This document shows positions 6,515-27,742 of a DNA stretch of 27,742 bases, in pieces. The position numbers and the translations under genes were made by a program. Each line of letters begins with the position of its first letter. Position 1 is the first letter of the stretch. Source of the DNA: a virus; UHGV virus genome UHGV-0038079; one strand, written 5' to 3'. A model generated the notes under the pieces. That model was not told where the DNA came from, made no database searches, and saw only the letters and a program-made list of their open reading frames with translations.

Positions 6515-6516
6515 TG

Positions 6517-6819: not shown

Positions 6820-6822
6820 GAA

Positions 6823-10108: not shown

Positions 10109-10111
10109 GTA

Positions 10112-10552
10112 TTAAAACTCCCCGAGAACCTGGTCAATCTTGCCGCAGTCAAACACCCACGGCATCGTATTACCGGTTTTAGCGTTGGCGTTATCCGGTT
10201 GTTTCTGGAACGCAACACTGCGTGCCGTGATGATGTCGCCGCTGACCTTGTTGCGGATCACGATAACGTTATTCCCCCATGTTGCAGAAGACTGGCTCTG
10301 TGCGTTATACGCCAGCGACAATTTTTTATTTGTCGGTGATGTCTTCAGAAGGTTAACGGTAATCGTCCCGCTTTTATCTGCATGGAGGCTGTGCATCACT
10401 TCGCCATCAGCACCGATGGTCATGGTGTTTTTAGGACCGCCCATCGCAACCACAATCCCCTCCTCAGAACTTGCCGAACCGTACCCGAGGTCAATCGAAC
10501 CGGTCGGCCCGGTCAGCGTCGCAGTGACATCCATAAAAGAATAGGTAGACAT
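10112..10552 (-). CDS. Tail tube protein, 146 aa
   Basis: Small protein immediately downstream of the sheath gene; conserved sheath-tube order. Confidence 0.6.
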   Translation of the reverse strand: MSTYSFMDVTATLTGPTGSIDLGYGSASSEEGIVVAMGGPKNTMTIGADGEVMHSLHADKSGTITVNLLKTSPTNKKLSLAYNAQSQSSATWGNNVIVIRNKVSGDIITARSVAFQKQPDNANAKTGNTMPWVFDCGKIDQVLGEF

Positions 10553-10562
10553 TCACTTCCCC

Positions 10563-11708: not shown

Positions 11709-11711
11709 AGC

Positions 11712-12278
11712 TTAATCTCCGAAAAAGATGACTGGTGCTTCCACCAGCGATTTAATACCGTACTCGCGCACAACCTTCCGGCGCAGACGCACCGTCATAT
11801 CGTAGCGGCGGACCCATTGCTGATTAATAAGTTCAGGGAAGGGAGTCAGACCTGTGTAATCGCCAAGAGACAGCCCCAGCGCATTCAGTGCTGCATTGTT
11901 CTGCGGTACAGATATACCGTCACGAAACCGGGACGCATACACCATCCCCGCCGGACCATAAAACGAAGCCATACACTCAATCGTTTCATGCCGCCAGAGC
12001 TGAGAGCCATCATCGGTCTGTCTGGTGAATGCCGGACTGTCATCACCTGACCATCCGATAACCCCAAACGCACACCAGTTCGTTTCAACCGGTAGCAGTG
12101 GCGGCTGCTCTTTCTGCCAGCGCGGGCGAACCATCCCGGCAGACAGACCGGAAACGTTACGCATCCACTGGCTTAACAGCCTGTCGAGCGCTTCGTCATA
12201 ATCCGGATCGCCACTGGTTGGTATTAACCATCCGCGCTCTGTACTGGTGTTATTGCTCAACCGGAGTTCCCCCATCAA
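11712..12278 (-). CDS. Neck / tail-completion protein, 188 aa
   Basis: ORF track; lies between head-completion genes and the sheath. Confidence 0.4.
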   Translation of the reverse strand: MMGELRLSNNTSTERGWLIPTSGDPDYDEALDRLLSQWMRNVSGLSAGMVRPRWQKEQPPLLPVETNWCAFGVIGWSGDDSPAFTRQTDDGSQLWRHETIECMASFYGPAGMVYASRFRDGISVPQNNAALNALGLSLGDYTGLTPFPELINQQWVRRYDMTVRLRRKVVREYGIKSLVEAPVIFFGD

Positions 12279-12639
12279 ACGGCATCAACTCACAATGCGC
12301 CTGAACGAATCCGGCCCCATAAGCTGTATACGGGTCGACGAAGGTCACACGATAATCACGGCCCTGATACGTCACGATATCGGCATCACGGCCAGTCTGT
12401 CCCTGCGTCAGTCGCTCAGTCGTCACAATCAGAATTGCACCGCTGATTACCTGCCCTGCCTGCATACGGCGGTTTTCCAGAGAGCGATCAACAGTTACGA
12501 CTCCGGCAAACTGCTTTTTAACTTCACTGTCTCTGCCGATCCCGTCCTCATCCACCGTTTGCACTCGGCGTGTTACCCACAAATTGAAGTCGCAAAAATC
12601 GGGGTCAAAAAGCACATCTGTTACATCAAGAGTCGGCAT
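12250..12639 (-). CDS. Head-tail joining protein, 129 aa
   Basis: ORF track; overlapping neighbours. Confidence 0.4.
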   Translation of the reverse strand: MPTLDVTDVLFDPDFCDFNLWVTRRVQTVDEDGIGRDSEVKKQFAGVVTVDRSLENRRMQAGQVISGAILIVTTERLTQGQTGRDADIVTYQGRDYRVTFVDPYTAYGAGFVQAHCELMPFDGGTPVEQ

Positions 12640-13180
12640 CTTTATCCCTCACAACATGGGTAATAGCTCTGCGATATTGCCCGGTATCAATTAATGGTTT
12701 CGCCAGATCGGTTCCCGGAGATTCGCCAGCAGAACGCCGGGCAAGTTCCGCTTTTGCCCCTTTGCGCCCACGGCGTGCACGTGCTTCAACGGTGCTATCA
12801 GCAAGCGGTGTAAAGCCGGTAATGGTCATGTAACGCCTGACGCCATTCGCGGCCAGCGTTCCGGCGCGGTTGAGTGCTCTTTCCGCCCCCGCCGCATTTC
12901 CATCAAGCGCAGCCTGCGCCGCTGTTTTGAGCTGCGGCAACGTCTGTTCTTCTACCGATTTAACGCCGGGGACCAGGTGAGGTCGTGGCGGGATGTTTTG
13001 CGCCGGTGAGCCGTATTCGTTGAGGTAACCGATCCCGGCATTACCAAACGGAACATCCTCACGCTCGCTGTCTGCTTCCGGGATACCCACCAGCACTTCT
13101 TTTTTACTGATGGATTTGAGCGCATCCAGAATGGCCTGAGCGTTATCCACCCTCGTTGTTACACCGCTTTTGAAGCTCAT
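12626..13180 (-). CDS. Head-tail connector/adaptor protein, 184 aa
   Basis: ORF track; position downstream of the capsid gene. Confidence 0.4.
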
Positions 13181-13584
13181 AGCTGGCGACCGCCTGCGCC
13201 AAACATCGTGATCAACTGATAAAATTCAGCGCCATATCGGGTGTTATTCCAGAAGCCTGCGTCAGGGTTTAGCGTCGCGCTGGTGTCATAGCTGACGCTT
13301 ACCTTATCCACGGACTTTGAGGACTGAACACCATTGGTTGAACCGCCCGGCCCGCCAGCCAGCATCGCCCGGCTGTCTGCCGCCCAGAGCGTCATGTAGT
13401 GTGCAACGAACAACTCGGCAAAGTACGGAAACAACTTTTTTCCGGTGACGTTTTCGCTCAGCAGCACATCGGCCAGGTTCAGACGAAACTGGATTTGCGC
13501 TTCGGGATATTTGGCAGGGTCAGCAAACTGCGGGAAGTCGCGGCGAAAATCACTTACCGCTGGCAGACTTTGATTCTTTGGCAT
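13177..13584 (-). CDS. Head completion protein, 135 aa
   Basis: ORF track; overlapping neighbours. Confidence 0.4.
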
Positions 13585-13771
13585 TTTTTACCTCGTTACG
13601 CGCGTCTGTGGCTTTGCCAACGGATACTTCAGCGTGCGCACGAGTGAACCAGTGCGTGGCAACGTCTTCCTCCACAGCATGACGGCCTTTAACAAACTCG
13701 CGCCGAGAACCGTCGGGAAGCGTGAGCACAAACGGGGTATGTACGTGTATTACTGCATCATTTTTTGCCAT
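13550..13771 (-). CDS. Small lysine-rich protein downstream of major capsid gene, 73 aa
   Basis: ORF track; SD AAGGA upstream of ATG 13771. Confidence 0.35.
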
Positions 13772-13815
13772 CGGGTCATCCTTAATGGCCCCGCCAGGGG
13801 GGGGCCATGTGGCTG

Positions 13816-14757
13816 TTAAATGCCATCAACGTACGAAATGGTTTCTTTGTACACTGGCTCGACTGCACCCAGCTTGCCGTAGTAAGTGACGATCTGATAC
13901 AGACCGCGATACTGCACCGGCACGCTCTGAAGCGGAACCAGCGGGTAGCGGACGTATTTTTTATCGTTGGTGTACGCAACCATGCGATCCTTATTCCCCA
14001 CACCACGGCCTTTCAGCCATTTAACCGCGCGGATATTCAGCGGAACACCGTTCTGGTGATAGCTGATGGTGTTGGTCTGAAGGTACGTCAACAGGGACTG
14101 GTTACCCGCAGATGAAACGATGATGCTGGACAACAGAGCAAACTGCTCAGGCGGGATCAGCAAATCACGCGGAACCACAGAGTAACCGGAAGCGGCCCAC
14201 GCATCAGACAGCACCTGGTTAATGCTTGCGCGGATTTCGTCCGGTGTTGAGGTTGCCCACGTTTTGGCAGCGTTGTTGACAGGAACACCGTTCAGGGTAA
14301 CAAGGCCTTTCAGGTTTAATGCTGAATCGCCAACATATACCTGTTCATCGTTATCCATCTGCCATTTCAGTTGCATCCCGTCATACTTCTGCGTATCGAT
14401 CGGGCGTCCGACCTGCTGAGCAGCCTGCAATTCTATGACCGTCCAGCCAAGTTCCATCCCCCACAGGTTCAGCGGGTTACCGGATTTGCCGATATCCACG
14501 TTCACGCCAGCAATAGCGGTTGAGTCTTTGCCTACCCAGTTTTTGCCATTCGGATTTGCGCCAGTACCCGCAGCGGCGAAGCTGGTATTCGTCCAGCTGG
14601 AAATGTCATCTGCGATGGAGACATCTTCACGCAGTTGGATATCGCGGGTCCAGGTGTACCCCACCAGTGGCAGGTTCAGCGTCTGGTCGAGTCGTTCCAG
14701 CTCCCCGATGAGAAAGGCACCAGAGCTGTCAACGGTTGCCTGATCAAAAGTAATCAT
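13816..14757 (-). CDS. Major capsid protein, 313 aa
   Basis: Position after scaffold and decoration genes; followed by a strong GC hairpin at 13785..13808. Confidence 0.65.
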   Translation of the reverse strand: MITFDQATVDSSGAFLIGELERLDQTLNLPLVGYTWTRDIQLREDVSIADDISSWTNTSFAAAGTGANPNGKNWVGKDSTAIAGVNVDIGKSGNPLNLWGMELGWTVIELQAAQQVGRPIDTQKYDGMQLKWQMDNDEQVYVGDSALNLKGLVTLNGVPVNNAAKTWATSTPDEIRASINQVLSDAWAASGYSVVPRDLLIPPEQFALLSSIIVSSAGNQSLLTYLQTNTISYHQNGVPLNIRAVKWLKGRGVGNKDRMVAYTNDKKYVRYPLVPLQSVPVQYRGLYQIVTYYGKLGAVEPVYKETISYVDGI

Positions 14758-14768
14758 TCGTCTGTTCC

Positions 14769-15275
14769 TTAAATCTTCCAGGAAATTTCTGCATTGCCGT
14801 TAGCATCACCGGCACCTGTGAATTCAGCGTTGGTCAGCACCACGTTTTTGCCACTGACTGACGTGGCCATGAATCCACCCAGCGGCACTTTGATGGATTC
14901 ATCAGTGGAGACGACAACGTATACCGGGTCGCCTTTTTTGATGGTGCTGGCATCAAAATCAGAACCGAGATTAACGGTCACGTAGCCACGCTTCATTGCG
15001 TCGCCCGGGAAGTTCTTGCCACTCCCCACCTGGCGAACCATGTCCGGCTGCGAAGTGGTCGGATAAGGGCGCACATAGATCCCCTTCACCTTGTCTGCGG
15101 TATCACCATCTGCCAGCGGCACGAAAAAACCGTCATCATCGTATTTACCAGCCAGCCCATAGGCAGCGAAGGCGTTATCGGATTTAAGGACCACCGGTTC
15201 GACGGTTAAGTCCTGCGGGCGAGAGACAGCCCCGGCAATGCCAACAGGCATCCGGTACAGAAATACATTATTCAT
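14769..15275 (-). CDS. Head structural/decoration protein, 168 aa
   Basis: ORF track; between the scaffold-like and major capsid genes. Confidence 0.5.
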   Translation of the reverse strand: MNNVFLYRMPVGIAGAVSRPQDLTVEPVVLKSDNAFAAYGLAGKYDDDGFFVPLADGDTADKVKGIYVRPYPTTSQPDMVRQVGSGKNFPGDAMKRGYVTVNLGSDFDASTIKKGDPVYVVVSTDESIKVPLGGFMATSVSGKNVVLTNAEFTGAGDANGNAEISWKI

Positions 15276-15278
15276 TTT

Positions 15279-16499
15279 TTACCCTTTACGGTTTGCCCAG
15301 AATTCAGCGTTTTGTTTGTTCAGGGAAGCGATACTGGTCATGCCCATGTTTGGGCGCTGTGCATCGCCGGTGGTGGCGCGGGTGTTTCGCCCTTTGGCAA
15401 TCTCAGACACGGCATTAAACGCCATGTCGACCGATTGTTTCGGCAATTTGCGGATATCCGCATCACCGACTATCTGGCGAACCAGCGTTTTATCTGCGGA
15501 AGCCAGAACCTCGCGTTTGAACGCGGTCGGTTTCATCTTACGGCTCAGATCGATACCCGGAACGATAACTTCGGCACGCCAGGCTGAGTCACCAGTAATC
15601 GTGGTTTCCTCTTCATCGTCCTCGCCGTCACCGGTCGGATTATCGTCAGGCTTATTGTCGTTATCGCCCGTCGCATTTCCTTCCAGCTTAGCCAGCAGGG
15701 CTTTCAGTAATGTTTTGAGGTCATCATCACTGTCGCCGGTTGGACCTCCACCCATCTCTGGTGCTTTGTCCGGTAGTGGTTGCTGCGGGGACAGGTTGAT
15801 GTTGAGATTAACGCCCTGCGGCAAATCCCCCTCATCTCCTGTAACCGATGCGGGAGCCGACTCCACCAGTTCGTTCATGGTGTCGGCATCTCCTGTCTTG
15901 ATGGCTGCACGCATGCGGTTCCACCAGTTTTTCTTTTGATTTGCCATTGTGTCTCTGTCTCCAATTGCACAACGATTTCCGGCTCTGCCTTTGGGGACAA
16001 GAGCCACATGGTTTCCGGTAATATCGACCTGCTCGGCTTTACCTGGCTCGGCCTGCTCGTACTCCGCGTCATAGCCGCACGACACTTCACGCAGGCCATC
16101 TTCGATAAGCTGAATGGCGTTTTCGTCTTTGACGATAAGGTCAGCCAGCATCAAATCAGACTGCTCACCCGTCCCGCGCCGGACATTCTGGAGGTGCCCG
16201 ACAGCAAGCTCTTTCCAGTTCTCGGGATTTACCAGCCGCACATTCCCGTTTTCATCTTCAGGATGCAGGATCGTGATGCTCATCCCTTCGAATGAGGCGA
16301 GCGTGGCCGGATGGAATACCTGCTCAGGAGAACGCGTTACGACTATCTCACCGAGCTTGTCGGGTTTGAGGTTTGGCAGATCGGCAGAGCCGTAGAGCTG
16401 CTTACCCGTTCGACCTATCGGCACGTCTTTGCACAGCAGCGAGCCGTCAGCCAGCTGATAGCGGGTTTCCCCCAGCCTGGTATTGAAAAAATATTTCAT
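15279..16499 (-). CDS. Scaffold / prohead protease-like protein, 406 aa
   Basis: Acidic low-complexity C-terminal half (DSDDDLK, GDGEDDEEE) typical of scaffolds; position after the head-morphogenesis gene. Confidence 0.55.
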   Translation of the reverse strand: MKYFFNTRLGETRYQLADGSLLCKDVPIGRTGKQLYGSADLPNLKPDKLGEIVVTRSPEQVFHPATLASFEGMSITILHPEDENGNVRLVNPENWKELAVGHLQNVRRGTGEQSDLMLADLIVKDENAIQLIEDGLREVSCGYDAEYEQAEPGKAEQVDITGNHVALVPKGRAGNRCAIGDRDTMANQKKNWWNRMRAAIKTGDADTMNELVESAPASVTGDEGDLPQGVNLNINLSPQQPLPDKAPEMGGGPTGDSDDDLKTLLKALLAKLEGNATGDNDNKPDDNPTGDGEDDEEETTITGDSAWRAEVIVPGIDLSRKMKPTAFKREVLASADKTLVRQIVGDADIRKLPKQSVDMAFNAVSEIAKGRNTRATTGDAQRPNMGMTSIASLNKQNAEFWANRKG

Positions 16500-16513
16500 G
16501 GTTTACCTGCGAT

Positions 16514-17287
16514 TCAGGCGAGATAAGAATGAGGGTTGGGAAAAACGATTTCTTTATAACAGCGACAATTCGGGAGCTCGCCAGCGTGACCGGTCATGCC
16601 ATCAAGCGTTGGAGGTTTGCCCCATTCGACAAACTTACCTTCCATCTCCCGATGAGAATGCCGGACGTCGCCATCTTCGGCTGTACGCCAGATATAACCA
16701 TTCGAGCCGATTGACAGCGCACGCGCCTGATCCAGCGCGCCGGTTGCACGTCCAAGCTCGGTACGGGCGATAAGGTTCGCTCGTGAGCGTGACACGTCAC
16801 CGGACGCTGCTATCTCTTTCGCGAATGGTTCAGCGCGGCCACCAGACACAACGGCCTCGATGGCCTTGTTCTGAATGTCATACACCCGATCGGCGGCCTC
16901 AAGAGGCAGCGATTTGATGTACTTAATTTGCTCGGCGACGATGGATTTCATCACCTGGCCTACCGGAGCGCGGTCGACCATGTTGCGCAGCTCTGAGCTG
17001 ATATTCCGGCTGTGCTGACGCCACTGCTTTTCATTCTGGCGCGCTATGTCTGCGGTGAAGTTCTCAGCTACCTTTGTCGCCCAGGGGGTGATGATTTCAC
17101 TGTAGCGTTCCAGCGCCTCAATAATTTCCGTGATACTGTCATTTGAACCATCGTAGCGACCATTTACGATGTCCCCGACCGCCCGCGCTATCTGCCGTAG
17201 GCTCGTTCGATATCGGATCTCCGCCTGGCGGCTCTGGCGGTTTGTCGTCAAGTTCGCCGATGCCTGGCGGCGCTTCGTCTTCGGCAT
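16514..17287 (-). CDS. Head morphogenesis protein (Mu F / SPP1 gp7-like), about 257 aa
   Basis: Position after portal; start set to ATG 17287 (MPKTKRRQ, SD GAGGA) rather than track start 17332, which has no SD. Confidence 0.6.
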   Translation of the reverse strand: MPKTKRRQASANLTTNRQSRQAEIRYRTSLRQIARAVGDIVNGRYDGSNDSITEIIEALERYSEIITPWATKVAENFTADIARQNEKQWRQHSRNISSELRNMVDRAPVGQVMKSIVAEQIKYIKSLPLEAADRVYDIQNKAIEAVVSGGRAEPFAKEIAASGDVSRSRANLIARTELGRATGALDQARALSIGSNGYIWRTAEDGDVRHSHREMEGKFVEWGKPPTLDGMTGHAGELPNCRCYKEIVFPNPHSYLA

Positions 17288-18605
17288 TCTCGATATCCTC
17301 GTCGGTAATAGATGCCCCGATGCCGGTGACATCAGAGTTTTCGCGTAGGTCGGTCATTGCCGCCTTACGCGTCATCAATCCGTCGCCCAGCGCGGTGCTG
17401 ATCGCGGTGGTGGTATTTACGGCCACCGTTGAGCGGTCAACGTCAGACATTTGCCAGAGCGGGTTAAACTCAAACGTGAAATCGTCCGGCAGCGGCTTGC
17501 CAAGCTCCGAACGATGCATGATGTCCAGTATCCGACGCATCGGCAGCCGTAAGCGGCGTTCCTGCAACGAGCTCACCCGGTCGTAATAGTTGGCGAGGTC
17601 TGCGTCACCGGTAGAGAAGCCTTTCGGGGACTGCCCGAAAAGGCGCACCAGCGGGATACCAACGGCACCGCTTATCTGCTCAGCGAACTGCGAAAGAATG
17701 TCATCCAGACCACTGAAGCTGTACTGGTGGGTTTCGAACTTATCCCGCGAGTCCATGAGCGTCATGCCTTCATTGCTCTGGAACTGGCGGATCAGGTCGA
17801 TGTTCTTCAGCAACGCTTCGAACGCTGGGCCACCAAGCGCGATAATCTCGCGCAGCTTCTCCACGCTGTAGGTGCGCAGATGCGCTTTGTAGACCAGCTG
17901 AGCCGCGCCGAGAGTGGCGCTGTCGAACGCAGTAAGCCGATCCCAGATTCGCTCTACAACCGACATTCCCCATTCGTTTTCGGTCATCTTCTGCTGGAAT
18001 GGCAGCGTCACCCCGTCGAAGCGAATAAGGCGGCTGTGATGGATGCGCCAGGCTGGAATGCCCGTGGCAGTGGTCACCACATCGTAAAACTCAGGTTTGC
18101 CGAGATCCGGCCCCATATCTTTAATGCGGCGGGTCAGCACCGGGTTAATCATCCAGCGGTCGAGTGGGAGAACGCCCTTAAACTTGCCTTCTCCAATGGT
18201 TTCGAGCCTCAGCGGGGTCATTGGTGCCTGCCCCTCAATCATGATGAAACCCACCGCGCCGCCGTAGAGACGCGACCATTTCAGCACGTCGTTCAGCGCA
18301 TCCCAGATTTGCAACTCATCCAGTTGTGATTCGAGAATGCCGCGATCTTTTGCATCAATTTCCGAAGTGATGCGAATGCCTTTGCGGGTCATATCATCCG
18401 GGATAGCATCGACCGCTTCGCCGATGATCCAGGACGAACGATAGGACCATTCCACCAGCATGCGGTTGCGACTGGTGAAGTTAGCCCGGTAGGTCGATGC
18501 TGAGTGCTGGTTAGGCGTCTGCATTCCCACGCGGGCGACAAAGTTCTCATAGCCATCAGCGGTGGCCTGCGCAGTTCTCCGCAGGGCTTGTTTGTTTCGT
18601 GCCAT
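17139..18605 (-). CDS. Portal protein, 488 aa
   Basis: Large protein immediately downstream of terminase large subunit; start overlaps the TerL stop. Confidence 0.7.
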   Translation of the reverse strand: MARNKQALRRTAQATADGYENFVARVGMQTPNQHSASTYRANFTSRNRMLVEWSYRSSWIIGEAVDAIPDDMTRKGIRITSEIDAKDRGILESQLDELQIWDALNDVLKWSRLYGGAVGFIMIEGQAPMTPLRLETIGEGKFKGVLPLDRWMINPVLTRRIKDMGPDLGKPEFYDVVTTATGIPAWRIHHSRLIRFDGVTLPFQQKMTENEWGMSVVERIWDRLTAFDSATLGAAQLVYKAHLRTYSVEKLREIIALGGPAFEALLKNIDLIRQFQSNEGMTLMDSRDKFETHQYSFSGLDDILSQFAEQISGAVGIPLVRLFGQSPKGFSTGDADLANYYDRVSSLQERRLRLPMRRILDIMHRSELGKPLPDDFTFEFNPLWQMSDVDRSTVAVNTTTAISTALGDGLMTRKAAMTDLRENSDVTGIGASITDEDIENAEDEAPPGIGELDDKPPEPPGGDPISNEPTADSAGGRGHRKWSLRWFK

Positions 18606-20227
18606 CAGGCCTGTCTCCCTAGCAGCTCCCAGATGTTCAGGGCTGAATTCATTGGCGCGTAGCTGATCATCACCGAGTCGGCAAGGTTTGGCGACCGGGT
18701 TCCATCAGGCTGTTTATCAATAACGATTTTTCCCACACCATTAATGGAATAGGTCGGCTGCGAAAGCTCGATGATGAGTTTATCTTTGAGTGCCATGCCA
18801 CTGCTGATTGAGATGATTTCGTCCGGGTTGTAAGCCATACCTTCAATCACGGCGCGCCAGGTATTCTGAAAAAGTTTACGTAACCGCCACCAGCTCTGGG
18901 CTTTGGCGTTAGCGAAGAAGTCCTTGTTCAGACGTGCGGCTTGCCCGTTGTCACCGCGCACCGCTTCGTCGTCCGGATCAAACACCGCGCCGCTACCGCG
19001 AAACGGTGTAGCGAGTATTGACGGTCGACGCGCAGCGTTACGCTGTTCGTTGATAGCGCGTGCATCGCCGCGAACGCCAGCGCCCAGCCCGTCCTCATCA
19101 AAGCGAAACTCTTCGAGGTTGTCCTGTTCGCAAAAACCGAAGACCTTCTCGACGGACTGATAAATGTCGCTGCCCACACCGGACCATTCCCGCACATTCT
19201 CCAGGAGGAAGCCATGACGGGTGGAAAAGGCATTTTTGTCCCTGCCTTCGTCGGCGACATCCATCGCGCCAAGTCGTTTGCCTGTTGGCTGGATCCCCAG
19301 TTTGATATGTGCATCAACGGCAGCCTGTACCCATTCGGATGGAATCAGGACGCCTTCCGCTGATGCGCTGTAGTTCAGGTCAAGTTCCTGTGCCACCACC
19401 ACCGGATTATCGATTTTCTCGCATTCCCTGCGATACCACTCTTCATCCTTGCGAGGATCATCCCGCCAGTGGAATGTGAATACCGGTATCTTCCCGCCAT
19501 GACGCTTCTGAGCGAACGGGTTCGCCATGCCGTTAACTGAACTCAGGTCGATACGGCAACGCGTCGTTTGTGACAACGCCGCATCAATCAGCAAAGGACG
19601 CTGAAGGAATGCAGCCTCATCAACCAGATAAAGCGTGGTACGGTCACCACGACCAATATTATCGCCAGCCTCGCCTTTGATAACGGCACCAGTTTCAGGA
19701 AACTCAACACGCATATATGGCGCGTGCTTCTTCTCGCTCCACGAACCGCGAAACTCTACAGGTAGCGTTTCCACGAACTTGCGCGCCTTCCAGAACAACG
19801 CTTTCGGGTCACCAGTGCTGTCGACGTATTCCTCTTTACGGGAGCCGAAACCGATAACCATTTCTTTGTTGAAGAGACAAAGCGAGCAGGCCAGTCCGAT
19901 CGCGGTCCAACTGAGCCCCATTTCACGGGATTTTTCGGTAATACCATTCTCCCGATTACCCCAGCGTTCCATAATCCAGTGGATCCACTCCTCCTGCTTA
20001 GGGAAGAGTAAAAACGGAATGGTCACCGGCAGGCCATAATCAATATTACGCGGGTCCGTTGTCATGCCCCAGTCGATGATGAACTGAGCCGGGTTGGTCC
20101 GGTAAAACTGCTTCAATACGGGCAATATTTCAGGATTCTGGCGAATGCGCTGTAGGCGTTCCATCCGCCATTCAAAAACTATCTGGTAATCAGGATGTTT
20201 AAAATCGAAGGGGAATGGTAACGGCAT
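18605..20227 (-). CDS. Terminase large subunit, 540 aa
   Basis: Size and position after the small subunit; ATPase-type N-terminal region and nuclease-type C-terminal region. Confidence 0.85.
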
Positions 20228-20229
20228 AC

Positions 20230-20781
20230 TTAGCCCATCATTTTTCTATACGCCTCTGCAGCCTGCTCCGGAGTTAAGTTGGTAATTTCTGTTCTGACTG
20301 GTCCTCCATCAGCGCCAGTCACTTCATTTTTGACGTTGTCTTTAAACGCCTGAACAGAAACATGACGCCCAAGCAACTCAAGGTTTTTAACCTTATCAGG
20401 CCATTTGATTTTCTTCAGGAGTGCGGCGCTATCTGCGGATGCCATCTCCACGACATCCATTCCCGATAACGTTGTGCGCCATACCTTAGGCCAGTCTTTA
20501 ATGGGTTTTAGCTCACCGTTTTGCAGGAGAATGTCAAGCACATCCATCTGGTCGATTTCAATAAGGCGATTAAGTACATATTCTGCATTAATACCAACAA
20601 GATCATTGCGTTGTGCTTTCAGTTCGGCGATTCTTAACTTGATGTCAGGTTTTGACAGGTTTTCGGATGCGGTACGGTTAGCTGTCTTTGCGCTGTACCC
20701 CGCCCGAATAGCCGCTTGCGTGGCGTTTAAATCGATGAGGTACTCGCGACAGAACATTTCTTGCTTGTCGGTGAGTGCCAT
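20230..20781 (-). CDS. Terminase small subunit, 183 aa
   Basis: N-terminus [30 protein letters not shown] is a typical small-terminase DNA-binding motif. Confidence 0.8.
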
Positions 20782-20803
20782 AAATTACCTTTAAGGATTT
20801 CAC

Positions 20804-21022
20804 ATGAGTGATGAATACAAACAGAAAATCGGCATTCCAGATGACCATACACTGGAGCTTGTCTCTTCTAACTGGAAAGGAGCTCGAAAAGGTCAGGATA
20901 CCGATGAATACCTTTACCGTGAGTTGGACACTGCGGGAAATGTAGTGGCCACTTATGAAATTAAAGATTCAACTTCTATATATCCACCATTCGGAAGATC
21001 TATCTCTTATAAGAAGGTCTAA
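20804..21022 (+). CDS. Hypothetical protein, 72 aa, divergent from the terminase operon
   Basis: SD AAGGA 7 nt upstream of ATG 20804; plus-strand gene embedded in a minus-strand operon; no family recognised. Confidence 0.5.
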   Translation: MSDEYKQKIGIPDDHTLELVSSNWKGARKGQDTDEYLYRELDTAGNVVATYEIKDSTSIYPPFGRSISYKKV

Positions 21023-21355
21023 GCAACCAGCTGACCAGCATGGCATTTCCGATTGAACATTTACACGTCCAGGATAATGCCATGTCTATTCCACAGTTCT
21101 ATCGTCACCTACCGATATTGGCGTGAACTACACGCACTTGACATCAGCAGGAGCGAAGTACGCCCCCTCCCGTCTAGGTCGCCAGCGGCACAAAGCCATT
21201 AACCAGCTCAGGCTGACGTCGTGACATCTTGCCCGTTTACTCGCCGCCGTCGTTCGTATTCAGTTTGATGATGTAGATGTCGGACATTGAGATCCTCTTT
21301 ATCCGCTTGTGGGGATATCAGTTAAGTTATCCCGTGTAGGGTATAAGCCATTATC

Positions 21356-21381
21356 AAAGCCATTCTGCAAGGAATGGCTTT
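21356..21381. terminator. Strong 10-bp stem hairpin, possible weak or bidirectional terminator
   Basis: AAAGCCATTC-TGCAAG-GAATGGCTTT; flanked by only short T stretches. Confidence 0.4.
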
Positions 21382-21411
21382 TGTGATGGCAATAAAAACA
21401 GCCGCAGGAGG

Positions 21412-21660
21412 TTAGATTAAGTCTTCACGTTTTACATATTCATCGATGTGATAAAGATGCATAAACTTTTCATCATGCCCACCAAATATCTGTGTTATCG
21501 ATTCGTCATCCCGGCCTTCAACAATTAAATGCTTTTCATGTGTTCCCGGCATAAATAACGCCCTTACAACATGTTCTAAGTGGTGTTTGAACTGTATGTG
21601 AAGCTCTCTTTCATCCTCAAAAGGAATATTTTCGGTAAGTTCAAAATAACGAAATGCCAT
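21412..21660 (-). CDS. Hypothetical His- and acid-rich protein, 82 aa
   Basis: SD GGGAGG 6 nt upstream of ATG 21660; own promoter-like region with palindromes; 9 His in 82 residues. Confidence 0.55.
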   Translation of the reverse strand: MAFRYFELTENIPFEDERELHIQFKHHLEHVVRALFMPGTHEKHLIVEGRDDESITQIFGGHDEKFMHLYHIDEYVKREDLI

Positions 21661-21686
21661 ATCTACCTCCCGTATAATGAGAGCTC

Positions 21687-21715
21687 ATCATTAATGAATT
21701 TTCTTGTCATGACAA
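21687..21715 (-). promoter_or_regulatory. Predicted promoter of the 82-aa gene with overlapping palindromic operator-like sites
   Basis: Minus-strand -35 TTGTCA, 17-bp spacer, -10 AATGAT; perfect 12-bp palindrome TTGTCATGACAA (plus 21704..21715) over the -35; near-palindrome TAATGAGAGCTCATCATTA (plus 21673..21691) over the -10/start region. Confidence 0.35.
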
Positions 21716-21911
21716 TGACAAATTATTTCAGGTTCCATTAGATATAGCTTTGTAATGAACAGGCACTTATCTCAACGCAGCCCCTTACCGCGCGCCAGAT
21801 GCTCAACTTCAAGCATCAGCAATGAGATGTTTAATCTGGATTCACTCCAGAAGTAATCACCACCCTGTCTACAGAGCCAGATGTGAAGAATGATGAGTAA
21901 AATTATCGCTA

Positions 21912-22379
21912 TCATCGAAGGCATTGCATCCTGATGTATTCCTGAAGCGCTCTCAGTGCTGTTTGGTCGCGGATAATTCCGTCCCGGATACCGAGAACGT
22001 TTCGTCCAGCACTTGGAGAGAGTTCGACGGTGGCATCATTGCCCATGCCGGAGGCGCTGGAGGTTTCGGCTGAGGATGGCACAGGGGATTTTCCTTTGAC
22101 GAGCACCCTGCCACCATCATCAAGCTTGCGCCGAAGAGCATCATTTTCAGCTTTCGCATCAGCTAACTCCTTCGTGTATTTAGCATCGAGTGCATCAGCA
22201 TCACGCTGGCGCTGCTGCATGTCAGTAATGGTGGCGTTCGCCTTCTCCAGTTCACTGGCCTTGTTATCGCGCTGCTCTTTGTAGGCGATTGCGTTATCAC
22301 GGTAATGATTAACAGCCCATGACAGGCAGACGATGATGCAGATAACCAGAGCGGAGATAATCGCGGTTACTCTGTTCAT
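21912..22379 (-). CDS. Rz: Rz i-spanin
   Basis: N-terminal TM helix ([23 protein letters not shown]) then coiled-coil; ATG 22379 overlaps the endolysin stop (ATGA). Confidence 0.8.
21953..22159 (-). CDS. Rz1: Rz1 o-spanin, embedded in Rz in the +1 frame
   Basis: Lipoprotein signal with lipobox ([16 protein letters not shown]) followed by a proline-rich segment; entirely inside Rz. Confidence 0.75.
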
Positions 22380-22873
22380 TGCTGACCCCACAAACAGATT
22401 TCACGCTCAATCTCACGACGAGTCATGAGACCTTTCCATTGCTTACCGCCAGCATATGTCCAGCGACGTAGCTGATCACATGCGCCTTTGATATCGCCCT
22501 GGTTTATTTTGCGAAGAAGCGTCGATGTTCTGAAATTGCCAGCACCCACGTTGTAAATGAATGAGTAAAGAGCGCCGCGCGTTGTTTCCGGTATATCGAC
22601 TTTGATGTACGGGTTAATTTGTCTGGCGACAGTGGCAAGATCTTTATTCAGGAGGGCTTTGCATTCTGCTTCGGTATACGTTTTACCGAGCATGATGTCT
22701 TTTCCGGTGTGTCCGTGACATACAGTCCATACGCCAACGATATCTTTGTATGGTATGTAGCTGACACCTTCCAGGCCATCGTCACCACTCGGACCAGTGA
22801 TGAGCACAGACGCTATGGCAACAGCCCCACCACCAATAGCAGCAGCAACAGCCTTGCGTAATGATGGCGACAT
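22376..22873 (-). CDS. R: SAR endolysin (phage 21 R-type lysozyme), 165 aa
   Basis: N-terminal signal-anchor-release segment [18 protein letters not shown] followed by a lysozyme domain; very close to the phage 21 R sequence as recalled. Confidence 0.9.
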
Positions 22874-23088
22874 TATTCACCTCTCGCAGCCTTACGCTTG
22901 TCTTCTCTGATTTTGAAATACAGATTTGTCAGATAAGTGAGAAAACCCAACACAAGGCTTCCAAGCACTCCAATCGCAGCCCACTGTGACGGACTGACCT
23001 GATCCAACCACTGCAAAAACCAGTATCCTGCACTACCAGCAGATGTTCCGTAGGCAATGCCAGTTGAGATTTTGTCCATTGATTTCAT
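22873..23088 (-). CDS. S: Class II pinholin (phage 21 S-type), 71 aa, dual start
   Basis: [30 protein letters not shown]... near-identical to S21 as recalled; Met1/Met4 dual-start motif; SD GGAGG. Confidence 0.9.
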
Positions 23089-23135
23089 AGCAACGCCTCC
23101 GCCAGTAACGGATTGCGTAGTTCTTATATTGGGAA

Positions 23136-23199
23136 GGGAGAAAAAGAAGGCCGTAGCATAACTATCACTGATGAGTTCAGGATAGCCAGTGGCTACGGC
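23136..23199 (-). other. Long hairpin followed by a T-rich run between the tRNAs and the holin gene
   Basis: GCCGTAGC ... GCTACGGC 8-bp arms around a 34-nt interior with an inner CACTG/CAGTG stem, then CTTCTTTTTCT on the minus strand. Confidence 0.3.
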
Positions 23200-23206
23200 T
23201 CAGTTT

Positions 23207-23282
23207 TGGTGCTGGTTAACGGACTTGACCCGCTACCAATTCGCTTACAAGGCGACCGCTCTACCATTGGAGCTAAACCAGC
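23207..23282 (-). tRNA. tRNA, anticodon UGU (Thr-like), 76 nt with encoded CCA
   Basis: Hand-folded cloverleaf: 7-bp acceptor stem GCTGGTT/AACCAGC, D arm GCTC-CAATGGTA-GAGC, anticodon loop CTTGTAA, discriminator A + CCA; T loop GTCAAGT has G at position 54 (non-canonical). Confidence 0.6.
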
Positions 23283-23287
23283 ATGTT

Positions 23288-23362
23288 TGGCGGGACAGCG
23301 TGGACTCGAACCACGATAAGAAGGTTAACAGCCTTCCGTAATGACCTTTATACGACTGACCC
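23288..23362 (-). tRNA. tRNA, anticodon GUU (Asn-like), 75 nt with encoded CCA
   Basis: Hand-folded cloverleaf: canonical T arm CGTGG-TTCGAGT-CCACG, anticodon arm GAAGG-CTGTTAA-CCTTC, acceptor GGGTCAG/CTGTCCC with one T:T mismatch, discriminator G + CCA. Confidence 0.6.
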
Positions 23363-23405
23363 AAATAAAAAAAAGCCACCGTTGCAACTTAAGAGTCACT
23401 AACGG
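23363..23405 (-). terminator. tR'-like terminator just downstream of the late promoter
   Basis: Minus-strand CCGTT...AACGG stem (with internal GTTGCAAC palindrome) followed by TGGC-TTTTTTTT; the loop is large, so strength is uncertain. Confidence 0.4.
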
Positions 23406-23419
23406 CAGCTTACCTTCTA

Positions 23420-23449
23420 ATTATGGCTAAATGGATAATTGCATGTCAA
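23420..23449 (-). promoter_or_regulatory. PR'-like late promoter (presumed Q target)
   Basis: Minus-strand perfect -35 TTGACA (plus 23444..23449, inside the last Q codons), 18-bp spacer, -10 CATAAT (plus 23420..23425). Confidence 0.5.
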
Positions 23450-23945
23450 GGCTTTTAACAGCAACATGCTTAACTTTCTCAACACGTTTACGCATTTTGA
23501 AAGCATTTTGCATTGGCTGGTACAAAACAAATAACGACGCTTTCAGGATGTCGTCAATTTCGTTTCTACAGGTTGCCAGTGAAGGTTTTCTCCATCCCTC
23601 GCCACCACGTCCACACATCTTGCGTGGCTTTGCAGTCGCGTGATAGTAGGATGCAATTGCTCGCTTAGATGAACCATGAGCGTAGTAGCTGAGGAGGATG
23701 CCAAAGGCTTTCTTGTCAATGTACATGACGGAATCGACGACCTGAGAAATCAACATTCCATCATCATCATTACACATTGGCCTTGTCATAACTCTTCCCG
23801 GCTCTACGCTCTCCATGAACTTCGCTATTACGCTGCTCATGCGCTTTTCCAGACGACCTGAATAAACCCATGCGCCCCACAGTTCAAGCCAGCCATTCAG
23901 CCACTCGTGCTGCTCTTTGGTGAGGTTTAGTTCTCTTATGCTCAT
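23427..23945 (-). CDS. Q: Late-gene antiterminator Q (phage 21/82-type family), 172 aa
   Basis: Position between ninH and the late promoter/lysis genes; motif WGAW...RPMCNDDDGMLI...LSYY as recalled for non-lambda Q families. Confidence 0.7.
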   Translation of the reverse strand: MSIRELNLTKEQHEWLNGWLELWGAWVYSGRLEKRMSSVIAKFMESVEPGRVMTRPMCNDDDGMLISQVVDSVMYIDKKAFGILLSYYAHGSSKRAIASYYHATAKPRKMCGRGGEGWRKPSLATCRNEIDDILKASLFVLYQPMQNAFKMRKRVEKVKHVAVKSLDMQLSI

Positions 23946-24130
23946 CGTCTTCCTCTCTTGCCCTGTTTGACCATCAGGACGCCGTTAACTATTACGTGAC
24001 GCTCGCCTTTGCTGTCTCGGTTGTACTTGAGCACTGTTCCTCTTGCACAGGAAAGCATCCTCGCCACTTCGGTCTGATTGCCTCGTGTCTGGATAAGAAG
24101 CTCTGGTATCGTTTGAATTGTGGCGTTCAT
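23942..24130 (-). CDS. ninH: NinH-like protein, 62 aa
   Basis: TIPELLIQTRGNQTEVARMLSCARGTVLKY matches lambda NinH as recalled (TIPDMLVETYGNQTEVARRLKCSRGTVRKY). Confidence 0.75.
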   Translation of the reverse strand: MNATIQTIPELLIQTRGNQTEVARMLSCARGTVLKYNRDSKGERHVIVNGVLMVKQGKRGRR

Positions 24131-24489
24131 ACGTTCTCCAGTTCGGTGATTTTTATTCCAAGCCTTCCGCCTGGTACTTTCACACCACGAATTACGCGAA
24201 TGTCATCGAATTGCTCGTCGTCTTCCGCAAATCCGGCGTGGATAAGGGAGTCGAGTAAACCTTTCAGGATGTTGTCGAGGTCGCGGCGGCGGGAGTCTGG
24301 AACGTCTGCGATGACTTTGATGCGGAGTCGTGATTTGGTGAAAATGTCTAACTTAAGTTGGCGGATGATTTGCTGAACGTCTTTTCGGTATTTCTGGCCT
24401 TTATCGCTTATGTAATATTGGCTTCCCCGTCTTCGCCAGTAGGTATTCACCGACGGCGGGTATGGAAGCACAAACTGATATTCGTTCAT
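24127..24489 (-). CDS. rusA: RusA Holliday-junction resolvase, 120 aa
   Basis: LPYPPSVN...DVPDSRRRDLDNILKGLLDSL...GGRLGIKITE matches RusA hallmark motifs. Confidence 0.85.
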   Translation of the reverse strand: MNEYQFVLPYPPSVNTYWRRRGSQYYISDKGQKYRKDVQQIIRQLKLDIFTKSRLRIKVIADVPDSRRRDLDNILKGLLDSLIHAGFAEDDEQFDDIRVIRGVKVPGGRLGIKITELENV

Positions 24490-24776
24490 GACTTAATCTT
24501 CCCCTCCTTCAGCAGTATCGCCTGCGTCCTGATTACGCCTTCGAGGTGGTAAAGTCTGGCGTCTTTGTTGTCGAGATTATGGGTGCGTCGGTCGATTTCA
24601 TCGTGGCAGTCACTACAAGCCCATGCGCCGATCAGGTCGTCAGGTTTCATTCCCGTTCCGCAAATTCCAGCCATCCGGTAATGTGCCAGAACTGTAGTTT
24701 CAGGATTACCATTGCATACGCCGTAAATACGTACCTGGCATTCTCTGCCGCGTGCTTCTTTGCGTAGGTTAGCCAT
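24486..24776 (-). CDS. YbcO-like putative nuclease (DUF1364), 96 aa
   Basis: MANLRKEARGRECQVRIYGVCNGNPETTVLAHYR...CSDCHDEIDRRTH closely resembles DLP12 YbcO as recalled. Confidence 0.75.
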   Translation of the reverse strand: MANLRKEARGRECQVRIYGVCNGNPETTVLAHYRMAGICGTGMKPDDLIGAWACSDCHDEIDRRTHNLDNKDARLYHLEGVIRTQAILLKEGKIKS

Positions 24777-25498
24777 TAAGCAGCCTCCCCGGTTACTTTC
24801 AGCATCCCGTTATCGAGCAGCTTTCTGGTCAGCCACTGTTGACCACGCCCGGTGATTTTTGTGGTGAACGATATCTGTATTCCGTGATTTGTGTTGACCG
24901 CTGTTTCTTTCACTGTGAAATAGCCGCGATCCATATATTCCTGCATTGGCACATTGCGCCGGGAACCTGAAGCAATTAGGATTTTGTGATCGCGCATCCA
25001 CGCAAACAGCTTGTTCGGACCAATACCGACAACCTTTGCAAAGTTTCCAATCAAAATTCCGCTGGCCTCGCCAACGCGATCGGCAAACTCAACTTTAGGT
25101 GCGGCAATTGCGAGCTGGTTTTCCAGTTGCATTTTCTGCTCAGCAAGATCAGCAGCAAGGCGCAACGCTTCCGGTAGCGTTTTGGGGATATTAACCGCAG
25201 CTTCTTCAAGCTCTCGCCAGCGGTCAACAAGGCGAGCGGTGAACTCTGGCGACAACTGAGCGACAACGACAATACTGTCTCGCTTACCTTGTTCGCCCTC
25301 GAAGACGTAATGCTCGTACTGAACATTGAACCCTAAGTTATTGATTCTTTCGGAAACCTCAATTTGAGGAAGCCGGATAACACCATTTTTAGCCAGCGTT
25401 TCGATGGTACGTTTCACATTGTCATGACGCTTACCCACCAACTCAGCGATTTCAATGCTTGTCATTTTGATGGCATTGCCATTTATTAACTCATTCAT
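24776..25498 (-). CDS. Antirepressor-like regulatory protein (Rha N-terminal domain + KilA-C/ANT C-terminal domain), 240 aa
   Basis: N-terminal SIEIAELVGKRHDNVKRTIETL (Rha-like), C-terminal ...GNFAKVVGIGPNKLFAWMRDHKIL (KilAC-like). Confidence 0.7.
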   Translation of the reverse strand: MNELINGNAIKMTSIEIAELVGKRHDNVKRTIETLAKNGVIRLPQIEVSERINNLGFNVQYEHYVFEGEQGKRDSIVVVAQLSPEFTARLVDRWRELEEAAVNIPKTLPEALRLAADLAEQKMQLENQLAIAAPKVEFADRVGEASGILIGNFAKVVGIGPNKLFAWMRDHKILIASGSRRNVPMQEYMDRGYFTVKETAVNTNHGIQISFTTKITGRGQQWLTRKLLDNGMLKVTGEAA

Positions 25499-25667
25499 CG
25501 TCTTCTTCCTCGTACATTGAGCTATTCGGATCGCTCATCAGTTCTGTACAGCACGCTTCACATACATGAACTTCCAGCACATGCAGCTTCTGACCGCAGT
25601 TAGCGCACGTTAAAGCCCGCTCGACGCTTTCTTTCTGGTATTGGAGGGATTGGGATGGGATAAGCAT
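25491..25667 (-). CDS. ninF: NinF-like protein, 58 aa
   Basis: [40 protein letters not shown] matches lambda NinF as recalled; start set at the internal Met of the track ORF. Confidence 0.75.
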   Translation of the reverse strand: MLIPSQSLQYQKESVERALTCANCGQKLHVLEVHVCEACCTELMSDPNSSMYEEEDDE

Positions 25668-26067
25668 GGCTTTCACCATTAAAAAGTCGCTTGTAAGCAT
25701 CAATGTCTCGTTTTGCTTCACCAAGCTTTCGTCTTAATTCCATGTTTTCTGATTCAAGCTTTTCCATGTCTTGCTGGTATCGATCGCGGTGTTCTTTCCA
25801 TGCTTTTTGATACGCCTTCATGTATGTCATGTTGGCCTTTCTCTTTGCCTGACGAACTGCGTGGTGGTTTTTAACAAACCAGTCAGGGTCGTTAAATGCT
25901 GCTCTGGCGCATGTATACCAATAATTTGTTGCCTCCCTGTTTAGCCAATAAATACTGATAAATGGCAACCGGATAGACACCATTTTTCGTTGTGACTCTT
26001 TCTCGCCAAACATGTGCCCTTTTTTGATGCTAAGGCCAAATCCAGGTTGAATTAAAAGCATTGTCAT
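25600..26067 (-). CDS. Hypothetical protein, about 155 aa, between ninE and ninF
   Basis: ATG 26067 overlaps the ninE stop (ATGA); predicted coiled-coil segment ([31 protein letters not shown]) and Pro-rich tail; 3' end overlaps ninF by 68 nt out of frame. Confidence 0.45.
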
Positions 26068-26240
26068 TTCCTCGCACGATGTCTTAGCCACCGGATATCC
26101 CACAGGTGAGCCGTGTAGTTGAAGGTTTTTACGTCAGATTCTTTTGGGATTGGCTTGCGTTTATTTCTGGAGCGCTTCGTTGGAAGGTATTTGCAGTTTT
26201 CGCAGATGATGTCGGTGATACTTCGTCGCTGTCGTCTCAT
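26064..26240 (-). CDS. ninE: NinE-like protein, 58 aa
   Basis: [47 protein letters not shown] matches lambda NinE as recalled; ATG overlaps the dam stop (ATGA). Confidence 0.75.
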
Positions 26241-26764
26241 GCTGCCCTCCTGACGCCCTGCCCGATCGCCATCAATGCCGCTTTGGATACGGTAGTAAAC
26301 ATCCGTCGAGGACTGATGAACGGTCGCCAAATCAGCAGCATGGAACCTTTGCTGTTTCCCTTCTTCTCCAGCCCTGTCGATGGTTCGATAAAATTAATCC
26401 GTCCATCAGTGATGATGCGAACTTCGTCAACACTCTCCAGAGCCTTGCTGAACCATCCGACAGACATATCCTCTGGCACAAGCATCACTACCGTCTGTCG
26501 CTGTTGCATGCACTGCTCAGCGGCTTTTTCCACCCACGGCCTGATATTGCTGTACGGTGGGTTATTCCAGATTGCACCGTGGCTTATCCACTCAGAATTT
26601 AGCGCGTCGTCAGCCTCAGTTAGCCAGTGAGCGCACAGAGCATTTTTGTCGCTCGCTGCCGAATCCAGCCAGAATCCAAACTCAATATCCAGTGCATCAA
26701 AAAGCCAAAGCGGCGTTTGCCAGCAGTCCTTGTCGTGTGCTGGCGTATTTGATTTGATAGTCAT
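26237..26764 (-). CDS. Phage-type DNA N6-adenine methyltransferase (orphan Dam family), about 175 aa
   Basis: [16 protein letters not shown]-terminus and NPPY catalytic motif (IWNNPPYSN); ATG 26764 overlaps the ninB stop. Confidence 0.8.
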
Positions 26765-27201
26765 GCAGCCCGATCTCCCCATCGCGCTTTCCATTCGAGA
26801 GCCAGTCGCGCTTCGTCTGACCACTTAACGCCACGCTCTGTACCGAATGCCTGTATAAGCTCTAATAGCTCCGCAAATTCGCTTACACGCATCCTGCTGG
26901 TTGACTGGCCTATTACCACAAAGCCATTCCCGGCAAGGTTAGGAACAACGTCCTGCTGCTTTAATGCTGCGGTAAACACACACTTCCAGCTTTCTGCATC
27001 CAGCCAGCGCCCATGCCATTCAACCTGACGAGAGACGTCACCAAGGCAAGCCCAAAGCTTTCGATTCTGGTCTAAGCTGCGGTTGCGTTCCTGAATGGTT
27101 ACTACGATTGGTTTGGTTGGGTCTGGAAGAATTTGCTGTACCGCGTGAATAGCGTTTTGCTGATGTGCTGGAGATCGAATTTCAAAGGTTAGTTTTTTCA
27201 T
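26761..27201 (-). CDS. ninB: NinB recombination protein, 146 aa
   Basis: MKKLTFEIRSPAHQQNAIHAVQQILPDPTKPIVVTIQERNRSLDQNRKLWACLGDV... essentially the lambda NinB sequence as recalled; start set at MKKLTF (27201). Confidence 0.9.
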   Translation of the reverse strand: MKKLTFEIRSPAHQQNAIHAVQQILPDPTKPIVVTIQERNRSLDQNRKLWACLGDVSRQVEWHGRWLDAESWKCVFTAALKQQDVVPNLAGNGFVVIGQSTSRMRVSEFAELLELIQAFGTERGVKWSDEARLALEWKARWGDRAA

Positions 27202-27278
27202 GACTTCCCTCTCCCCCAAATAAAAAGGCCTGCGATTACCAGCAGGCCTGTTATTAGCTCAGTGATGTAGATGGTCAT
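27198..27278 (-). CDS. Putative 26-codon hydrophobic peptide ORF, translationally coupled between ren and ninB
   Basis: MTIYITELITGLLVIAGLFIWGRGKS; SD GGAGG 8 nt upstream; ATG overlaps the ren stop and its stop overlaps the ninB ATG; encoded across the tR2-like hairpin, so it may be a chance translation. Confidence 0.3.
   Translation of the reverse strand: MTIYITELITGLLVIAGLFIWGRGKS
27216..27250 (-). terminator. tR2-like intrinsic terminator between ren and ninB
   Basis: Minus-strand AGGCCTGC-TGGTAATC-GCAGGCCT (8-bp stem) followed by TTTTTATTT. Confidence 0.6.
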
Positions 27279-27565
27279 TGCCTTACCTCCATAAGCGCCC
27301 TATTAATAAACGCCGTCATTGGATTTGCACATCCCCACCCCGTACCATCTGGATTTCTTTTAATTGGCTCCTTCTTCACTTTGCGTTTTGCATAAATAAC
27401 CGTCTTCCACTTACGCTCAACAACACTCAAATGTCCTTGTTTCACCATATGCCTTGCTGCTTGAGCGATTCTGTTATTTGGTATTCCGGTGATCAGTGCT
27501 AATTCATGTGGGGAGAATTGTTCATGAGTTTTCAGATATTCCAGGATGATTTCTTTTCCAGTCAC
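27275..27565 (-). CDS. ren: Ren-like protein, 96 aa (GTG start)
   Basis: MTGKEIILEYLKTHEQFSPHELALITG... matches the lambda Ren N-terminus as recalled (MTGKEAIIHYLGTH...); same length; SD GGAG 8 nt upstream. Confidence 0.7.
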   Translation of the reverse strand: MTGKEIILEYLKTHEQFSPHELALITGIPNNRIAQAARHMVKQGHLSVVERKWKTVIYAKRKVKKEPIKRNPDGTGWGCANPMTAFINRALMEVRQ

Positions 27566-27742
27566 GATCTGCTCCTGTAACTATCCCATGTAAACGCAAG
27601 AGTGCACCCGCCGCCATCATTCATCCTGTCAATAACACGCTCACCAATGAATGCAGACAGTTCATCTTGAGCTGGCCCCCTGAAATACCAGACAGTAGAT
27701 GTATCTTAAAATAAGAGATAGGCTTGGATATATGTCTAACAC

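Follow-up and report, generated by a model that had tools for sequence, protein, structure and literature searches.

The window, by which is meant the whole 27,742-nucleotide stretch of viral DNA analysed here, carries on its minus strand an open reading frame of 240 amino acids with an ATG start (24776..25498, stop codon included), which the ORF list, the sequence and identity to annotated Roi proteins mark as the coding sequence of roi. The gene is the HK620/E212 allele of roi, which belongs to the accessory delayed-early genes of the lambdoid nin region, and its product shares 99.2% amino acid identity with the Roi of HK620, 98.8% with that of E212 and 88.4% with that of HK022, to which it is homologous over its full length (88% over 240/241 amino acids, E 4e-159). 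The 2.3 kb around roi shares 93–97% identity with the nin regions of E212, Gally, HK629, mEpX2, HK620, HK97 and HK022, and the gene is annotated (as Roi or 'DNA-binding protein Roi') in HK022, HK97, HK620 and E212, and also in H-19B/Stx phages and CUS-3. It is a long-known gene of HK022/HK97/HK620-type phages and a widespread one, being present in 1110 of the 5426 complete genomes of E. coli (about one-fifth) and in many Stx phages.

The nin region of the window reads ninB, dam, orf, ninF, roi, ybcO-like, rusA, ninH and Q, the same order and the same position between P and Q as in HK022, HK97, HK620 and E212. The first-pass annotation had placed a gene of the nin region at these coordinates, and both the coordinates, with the stop codon included, and the gene order agree with it. 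Directly upstream of roi on the same strand is ninF (25491..25667, minus), identified from Pfam NinF and PHROG 672 matches, which cover amino acids 20–77 of the listed ORF, and from the E212 annotation; its end overlaps the beginning of roi, start codon included, by 8 nt. Directly downstream is the ybcO-like gene (DUF1364/HNH; 24486..24776, minus; Pfam YbcO, E 3.4e-44), the ATG of which shares the sequence TAATG with the roi stop. With overlaps on both sides, roi appears to be translationally coupled to ninF and the ybcO-like gene.

The nin operon to which roi belongs begins at a tR2-like intrinsic terminator upstream of ninB, found by terminator scan (27226..27249, minus), and tR2 is annotated at the equivalent position in HK620. 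A promoter scan of 23000..27742, which works by consensus matching and which a non-canonical promoter would escape, returned only two promoter-like sites, neither of them upstream of or within roi; at the end of Q there is a PR'-like late promoter (23420..23449, minus), which matches the consensus at 11 of 12 positions. No Mnt/Arc-type or other control cassette for roi is present at the locus. Transcription of roi would thus be expected only within the PR operon, once antitermination allows read-through of tR2, and the gene would stay silent as long as PR is held by the prophage repressor, in which case Roi could not start the induction of its own prophage.

Roi is composed of two domains, both of which had been proposed from the sequence in the first-pass annotation and both of which score above the curated Pfam cut-offs. 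The N-terminal, Rha-type winged helix-turn-helix domain (amino acids 12–99; 25202..25465, minus) matches PF09669 Phage_pRha over the full profile, positions 1–91 (E 6.3e-9, 36.7 bits against a cut-off of 29.9), and the C-terminal KilAC/ANT domain (amino acids 126–228; 24815..25123, minus) matches PF03374 ANT over profile positions 1–106 of 108 (E 7.7e-33, 113.5 bits against a cut-off of 25.3), an assignment that the AlphaFold model and the invariance of the domain also bear on. The NCBIfam subfamily model TIGR02681 phage_pRha stayed below its cut-off on Roi (17.9 against 45.95 bits, 25 residues matched). The Rha proteins of phi80 and P22 share the Phage_pRha N-terminal domain but are without KilAC and are encoded elsewhere in the genome.

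An AlphaFold model built on an alignment of 73 diverse KilAC proteins reached a mean pLDDT of 88.5 and superseded an earlier model from a shallow alignment of close alleles, which had a mean pLDDT of 57 and a poor C-terminal domain. In the model the N-terminal winged helix consists of helices 14–21 and 25–37, a hairpin at 45–67 and helices within 68–101, and the KilAC domain consists of helices 150–157, 161–170, 186–190 and 217–229 with strands 194–203 and 206–215, mostly at pLDDT 94–97, giving a predicted second helix-turn-helix (amino acids 150–170) and a beta-hairpin (amino acids 194–215). The two domains are joined by a long modelled helix of 37 residues (amino acids 108–144; 25067..25177, minus), which may serve as a dimerisation helix; residues 99–133 occur in two alternative sequence forms in the alignment. 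A sequence search of the PDB with Roi gave no match and a Foldseek search of the PDB with the model gave nothing significant; the likeness to MerR-type domains was weak, and Roi resembles MerR-family regulators in architecture only. Of the 73 KilAC proteins taken as representatives, 30 have KilAC fused to Rha, 15 to AntA, nine to Bro-N and three to KilA-N, and this variety of partners indicates that KilAC is a mobile effector module.

Variation among roi alleles is concentrated in a short hypervariable cassette, delimited from allele alignments to gene nt 63–190 (amino acids 22–64; 25309..25436, minus), in which nucleotide identity between alleles falls to 51–69%, compared with 66–100% in nt 1–62, 79–92% in nt 191–294 and 94–98% in nt 401–723; the immediate flanks of the cassette are usually 87–100% identical. 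At least nine allele classes of amino acids 22–64 occur among roi homologues, whereas the KilAC domain is nearly invariant among close homologues. The HK022/HK97 gene, which has the same neighbours (ninF on one side; ybcO-like, rusA, ninH and Q on the other), differs from the copy described here in carrying another cassette allele, with 55% nucleotide identity over that region. In the AlphaFold model, the cassette corresponds to the second helix of the helix-turn-helix, the predicted recognition helix, together with the beta-wing. The N-terminal winged helix is therefore expected from the model to carry the DNA specificity of Roi, the cassette comprising the parts expected to read DNA.

The cassette also contains a perfect match, AATCAATAACTTA, to the IHF core consensus (WATCAANNNNTTR), found by consensus scan at gene nt 153–165 (25334..25346, minus), where it encodes the residues I-N-N-L of the wing loop. 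The window as a whole has two perfect matches to this core in 27.7 kb, one of which is the match inside roi, and the HK022 gene has an IHF core at the same gene position (nt 153–165), the sole match in 4.85 kb. In all eight of the eight allele classes with the motif I-N-x-L-G, the specified bases of the core are unchanged, and the N positions vary across the same eight classes, amino acid changes included. With the encoded peptide and local codon usage taken as given, an IHF consensus would be expected with a probability of about 0.04–0.05 per allele.

Dyad search and allele comparison located, 17 bases upstream of the IHF core, the sequence CCTCAAaTTGAGG (25357..25369), a perfect 6+6 dyad with its centre at gene nt 136. 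Around this centre, other alleles carry dyads that differ in sequence and in the residues encoded, namely CCTGCAtTGCAGG, CGCCAaTGGCG and, in HK022 and HK97, CTGCAtTGCAG. Near copies of the locus are 99–100% identical and were uninformative for covariation, and were replaced by a scan for the pattern of conserved flanks. Four further classes of divergent alleles were retrieved for an out-of-sample test, and two of these show perfect dyads of new sequence, ACTCCGcCGGAGT and TCCCCCAaTGGGGGA, the remaining two having 5/6 pairs. One of the earlier allele classes has neither the dyad nor the IHF core, and one class has the dyad and no IHF core. Allele comparison also revealed, in the stretch that separates the dyad from the IHF core, a small palindrome, TTTCcGAAA (25348..25356), which takes the form TTTTCGAAAA or ATTTCGAAAT in other alleles.

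Resampling of synonymous codons gave P 0.006 for the dyad of this allele and P 0.003–0.02 in seven of ten classes, and Fisher's combination gave P 0.001 for the four out-of-sample alleles and 8e-7 for all classes, combined values that err on the optimistic side, since three to four of the six pairs are favoured by the peptide itself and the allele classes share ancestry. In 1.48 Mb of retrieved loci, all 139 occurrences of the dyad of this allele are at the roi site, and for four of five classes the dyad was found only at the roi site in this flanking DNA. No additional copies that could serve as Roi targets were found in the flanking loci, and the two matches with two mismatches in the window are not above chance. 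An RNA hairpin is an unlikely reason for the dyad, since its 1-nt centre cannot form a loop, and for three of four alleles the z-score of folding was between -0.3 and -0.9. A second 6+6 palindrome (25470..25482) was set aside, being lost in L205 and L206, diverged alleles that differ there. An inverted repeat at 25209–25257 lies within the conserved part of roi.

In its simplest reading, the dyad at 25357..25369 is a candidate operator for Roi. The Roi of HK022 is reportedly a helix-turn-helix DNA-binding protein with a site inside its own gene beside an IHF site, its binding is said to be stabilised by IHF, and on IHF mutants lytic growth is reportedly blocked by wild-type Roi. Both the dyad and the IHF core described here agree with such an intragenic Roi site with IHF alongside. 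The Rha protein was reportedly also found through inhibition of phage growth in IHF mutants, a phenotype like that of Roi.

The explanation that best accounts for these observations jointly, and which we consider probable, is that the gene is roi, that it is expressed from the PR operon and that its product binds, with the assistance of IHF, to a dyad inside its own coding sequence. A dimer of Roi would bind the short dyad (25357..25369), and IHF bound at the adjacent core (25334..25346) would stabilise the Roi–dyad complex. The resulting complex would limit the amount or the action of Roi and so be autoregulatory; without IHF this control would fail, and Roi would block lytic growth. The invariant KilAC domain would probably act on a conserved host component, for which SOS/RecA and cell division offer precedents. 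The binding to the dyad, the dimeric state and the autoregulation are put forward as candidate steps. An allele-specific dyad beside a conserved IHF core in a swappable cassette gives a concrete hypothesis on the mode of action of Roi, and this arrangement is the one point at the locus that may repay a simple experiment.

Since the dyad and the IHF site share DNA with the codons of the recognition helix and the wing, the part of the protein that reads DNA and its target would move together when alleles recombine. The module exchanged may consist of 128 bp, comprising the codons of the recognition helix and wing, the dyad operator and the IHF site, and at least nine classes of it may circulate in enterobacterial prophages. 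It is possible, though we put this forward tentatively and with some doubt, that roi contains a self-contained, exchangeable specificity module of this kind, and that an IHF-gated complex sets the dose of an invariant KilAC effector, the target of which would be a conserved one in the host and not the phage repressor.

Other readings of the KilAC half have to be weighed against this. One is a dual function like that of AriS from Listeria phage phi10403S, in which the N-terminal domain of Roi would regulate the genes of its phage and KilAC would act on a conserved host target and dampen the SOS response, probably via RecA, tuning induction among co-resident prophages. AriS has AntA/AntB joined to KilAC, and so resembles Roi in its two-domain plan, with a regulatory N-terminal part that varies and a C-terminal KilAC part that is conserved; its N-terminal domain belongs to another family, and its likeness to Roi is one of KilAC family membership only. 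The KilAC domain of AriS suppresses SOS, probably via RecA, and the regulation of the phage's genes falls to the N-terminal domain. The KilAC domain alone, from AriS and from two homologues, blocks SOS and lysis, proteins combining pRha and KilAC are listed among the AriS-like proteins in the AriS paper, and the occurrence of KilAC as a mobile module fused to Rha, AntA, Bro-N and KilA-N is in line with such a role, as is the near-invariance of the Roi KilAC domain across heteroimmune phages, which fits a host target. However, this evidence comes from distantly related proteins of Firmicutes, SOS was not inhibited at native AriS levels in that study, and nothing ties Roi to RecA or LexA. An AriS-like function is, on balance, unlikely; it is compatible with IHF-assisted binding by the N-terminal half and is a refinement of that explanation more than an alternative to it.

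It is quite improbable that Roi is a host-toxic effector like KilA, with a KilAC domain that arrests growth or division during lytic development and a Roi/IHF complex that keeps its dose low. The P1 proteins Ant1/Ant2 and KilA share the KilAC domain with Roi but differ in their N-terminal domains, which are AntA/AntB or KilA-N, and the C-terminal half of Roi reportedly resembles P1 Ant1 and KilA. KilA of P1 is lethal, CreP, which consists of KilAC only, is bacteriostatic and inhibits division, and Gp07 of phi11 causes filamentation via its KilA-C domain. The toxicity of an overdose would also account for the growth block that wild-type Roi is said to impose without IHF. Against this, the residues conserved between CreP and the C-terminus of P1 KilA are limited, and Roi matches no defence or toxin model of PADLOC, the sole hit being a chance-level one to Csa3 (E 0.022).

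The first-pass annotation had described roi as a second antirepressor beside the ant gene of the window, implying a further layer of immunity or anti-immunity control. In that case, KilAC would bind and inactivate a CI-type repressor, whether of its own phage or of a co-resident prophage, a reading to which we give little probability. The label itself is consistent across databases: the family is named 'antirepressor' in Pfam, PHROG and RefSeq, and Roi matches PHROG 63, 'anti-repressor Ant', at 1e-99. The KilAC domain is also found in Ant1/Ant2 of P1 and P7, which are true antirepressors in P1, and a delayed-early Roi could target heteroimmune prophages in trans or strengthen the commitment to lysis. 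The KilAC activities that have been demonstrated experimentally are nevertheless mixed, including antirepression, inhibition of SOS and arrest of growth or division, and the AriS authors call the function of these domains still unclear.

A comparison of phages also bears on this question. The KilAC domain is 97–100% identical in HK022, HK97, HK620, E212 and the window, and HK022 and HK97 have the whole Roi allele in common (98.8% identity), whereas the CI repressor of HK022 has no detectable similarity to those of HK97 or HK620, and the latter two are 43% identical to each other. Near-identical KilAC domains, and even whole Roi alleles, in phages with unrelated CI repressors argue against a cognate antirepressor, the specificity of which would follow immunity type, as that of Roi does not in the comparison of HK022 with HK97. 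P22 Ant is a promiscuous antirepressor, so an invariant KilAC domain would be compatible with one of broad spectrum. The promoter scan, the terminator and the gene overlaps give roi no control separate from that of the main repressor, such as would mark an antirepressor, and place it, with neither a dedicated cassette nor a promoter of its own, behind tR2 in the PR operon. The published phenotype of Roi also runs the other way, in that Roi inhibits lytic growth and does not promote it. Published accounts either implicate Roi in lytic growth or describe it as inhibiting lytic activation, and roi has been found disrupted by IS629 in resident Stx2a prophages; no report of antirepressor activity of Roi was found in the literature searched, which consisted of secondary accounts of Roi. 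The antirepressor reading of roi is not supported by this evidence, and Roi is probably not an antirepressor.

A genuine cassette of immI type, with an Ant of P22 type, is present elsewhere in the window (3545..5123). Its ant gene (3545..4459), which the first-pass annotation had recognised as such, encodes Bro-N and P22AR_C domains by Pfam. An Arc-like gene (4531..4692; 19.2 bits, slightly short of the 20.4 cut-off) precedes it, and a divergent Mnt/Arc-like gene (4800..5123; E 1.5e-18) accompanies it. The P22 immI system of Mnt, Arc and Ant resembles Roi in its 'antirepressor' annotation, but it differs in having Bro-N and P22AR_C domains, a cassette with its own promoter and operator and two dedicated repressors, none of which is a feature of Roi. 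The ant gene of P1 is under the control of c4, an antisense RNA in immI. Roi and the Ant of the window have no Pfam domain in common, and a BLASTP comparison of the two gave a local match of 37 residues between the KilAC helix-turn-helix and P22AR_C, with an E value of 9e-4 that applies to a single comparison. The view of two antirepressors from different families is accordingly borne out as far as the difference in domain families is concerned and falls short in the antirepressor role assigned to Roi. The placing of a repressor target outside the window agrees with its gene content, no repressor gene being present within it, but the further layer of control had rested on a domain name, and the shared operon control of roi and the spread of its KilAC domain among phages with unrelated CI speak against it. 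The 'antirepressor' label on KilAC and Rha proteins is an inherited domain name, not a function, and counting such genes as layers of anti-immunity would mislead the annotation of prophages.

The remainder of the window is mosaic. Its structural genes are like those of myoviruses, among them vB_EcoM-611R5 and the Salmonella phage SEN34, and this myovirus-type structural module distinguishes the phage from HK022 and HK97.

The window is a mosaic, as read from its sequence relationships, with 1..23000 forming one part and 23000..27742 the other. Its structural genes share 95-96% identity with their counterparts in two Escherichia myoviruses, vB_EcoM-611R5 and 606R2, and about 82% with those in Salmonella phage SEN34, whereas the nearest relatives of the nin region are P22-like and HK97-like phages (E212, HK620 and HK629). 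Between dam on one side and ninF on the other, this region contains an ORF of at most 167 aa (25600..26103, minus strand), in the place occupied by ninE in HK620 and HK022. The ORF, to which the annotation of phage E212 gives 135 aa, matches PHROG 1511, a group of unknown function, and no family in Pfam.

In Roi, the Rha/KilAC protein encoded in the nin region (24776..25498), residues 99-133 (25100..25204), where the long linker helix begins, take two alternative forms across alleles, AAVNIPKTLPEALRLAADLAEQKMQLENQLAIAAP and ATAKIPQTFSEALRLAADLEDQKAELEKQLALATP. As judged from these sequences, this stretch forms a second mosaic segment and is independent of the hypervariable cassette at residues 22-64. 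The metagenomic relative L206 carries two Rha-domain genes in tandem, with a 142-aa protein whose only domain is Rha (176..604 of that locus) encoded directly upstream of, and overlapping, the roi-like gene.

The first-pass annotation had described Roi and Ant (3545..4459), the antirepressor-like protein of the immI-type cassette, as unrelated. BLASTP gave a short local match between residues 137-169 of Roi, the helix-turn-helix part of KilAC, and residues 256-291 of Ant, in P22AR_C (16/37 identical; E 9e-4, calculated for a single comparison), suggesting that the C-terminal domains of the two proteins may instead be distant kin.

The immI cassette also includes an Arc-like gene (4531..4692, minus strand) and a divergent Mnt/Arc-like gene (4800..5123, plus strand), and the intergenic sequence between them contains a perfect 7+7 palindrome, AAGGCAAaTTGCCTT (4715..4729), which is a candidate operator of the cassette. 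Beside the Mnt-like gene, with the cassette on one side and the tail genes on the other, lies a 111-aa ORF (5148..5483, minus strand), which has no match in Pfam and whose product has a signal-peptide-like N-terminus (MKKVFFCLFLALPLTVSA). This ORF may be a moron.

The whole window has 17 perfect palindromes whose arms measure 6 nt or more and whose centre is 0-1 nt. The roi gene (723 bp) holds three of them, where about 0.4 would be expected, at 24908..24920, 25357..25369 (the roi dyad, a candidate Roi operator) and 25470..25482, each with a 1-nt centre. The last is lost in L205 and L206, two diverged alleles, and the first sits within invariant sequence. In one rare allele the roi dyad is the palindrome CCCCCAWTGGGGG, which was found again away from the dyad position in loci L107, L118, L138, L146, L154, L156, L157, L185 and L190. 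These extra sites lie 3.1-6.8 kb from the roi anchor, whichever roi allele the locus has, and probably represent an unrelated replication-region element.
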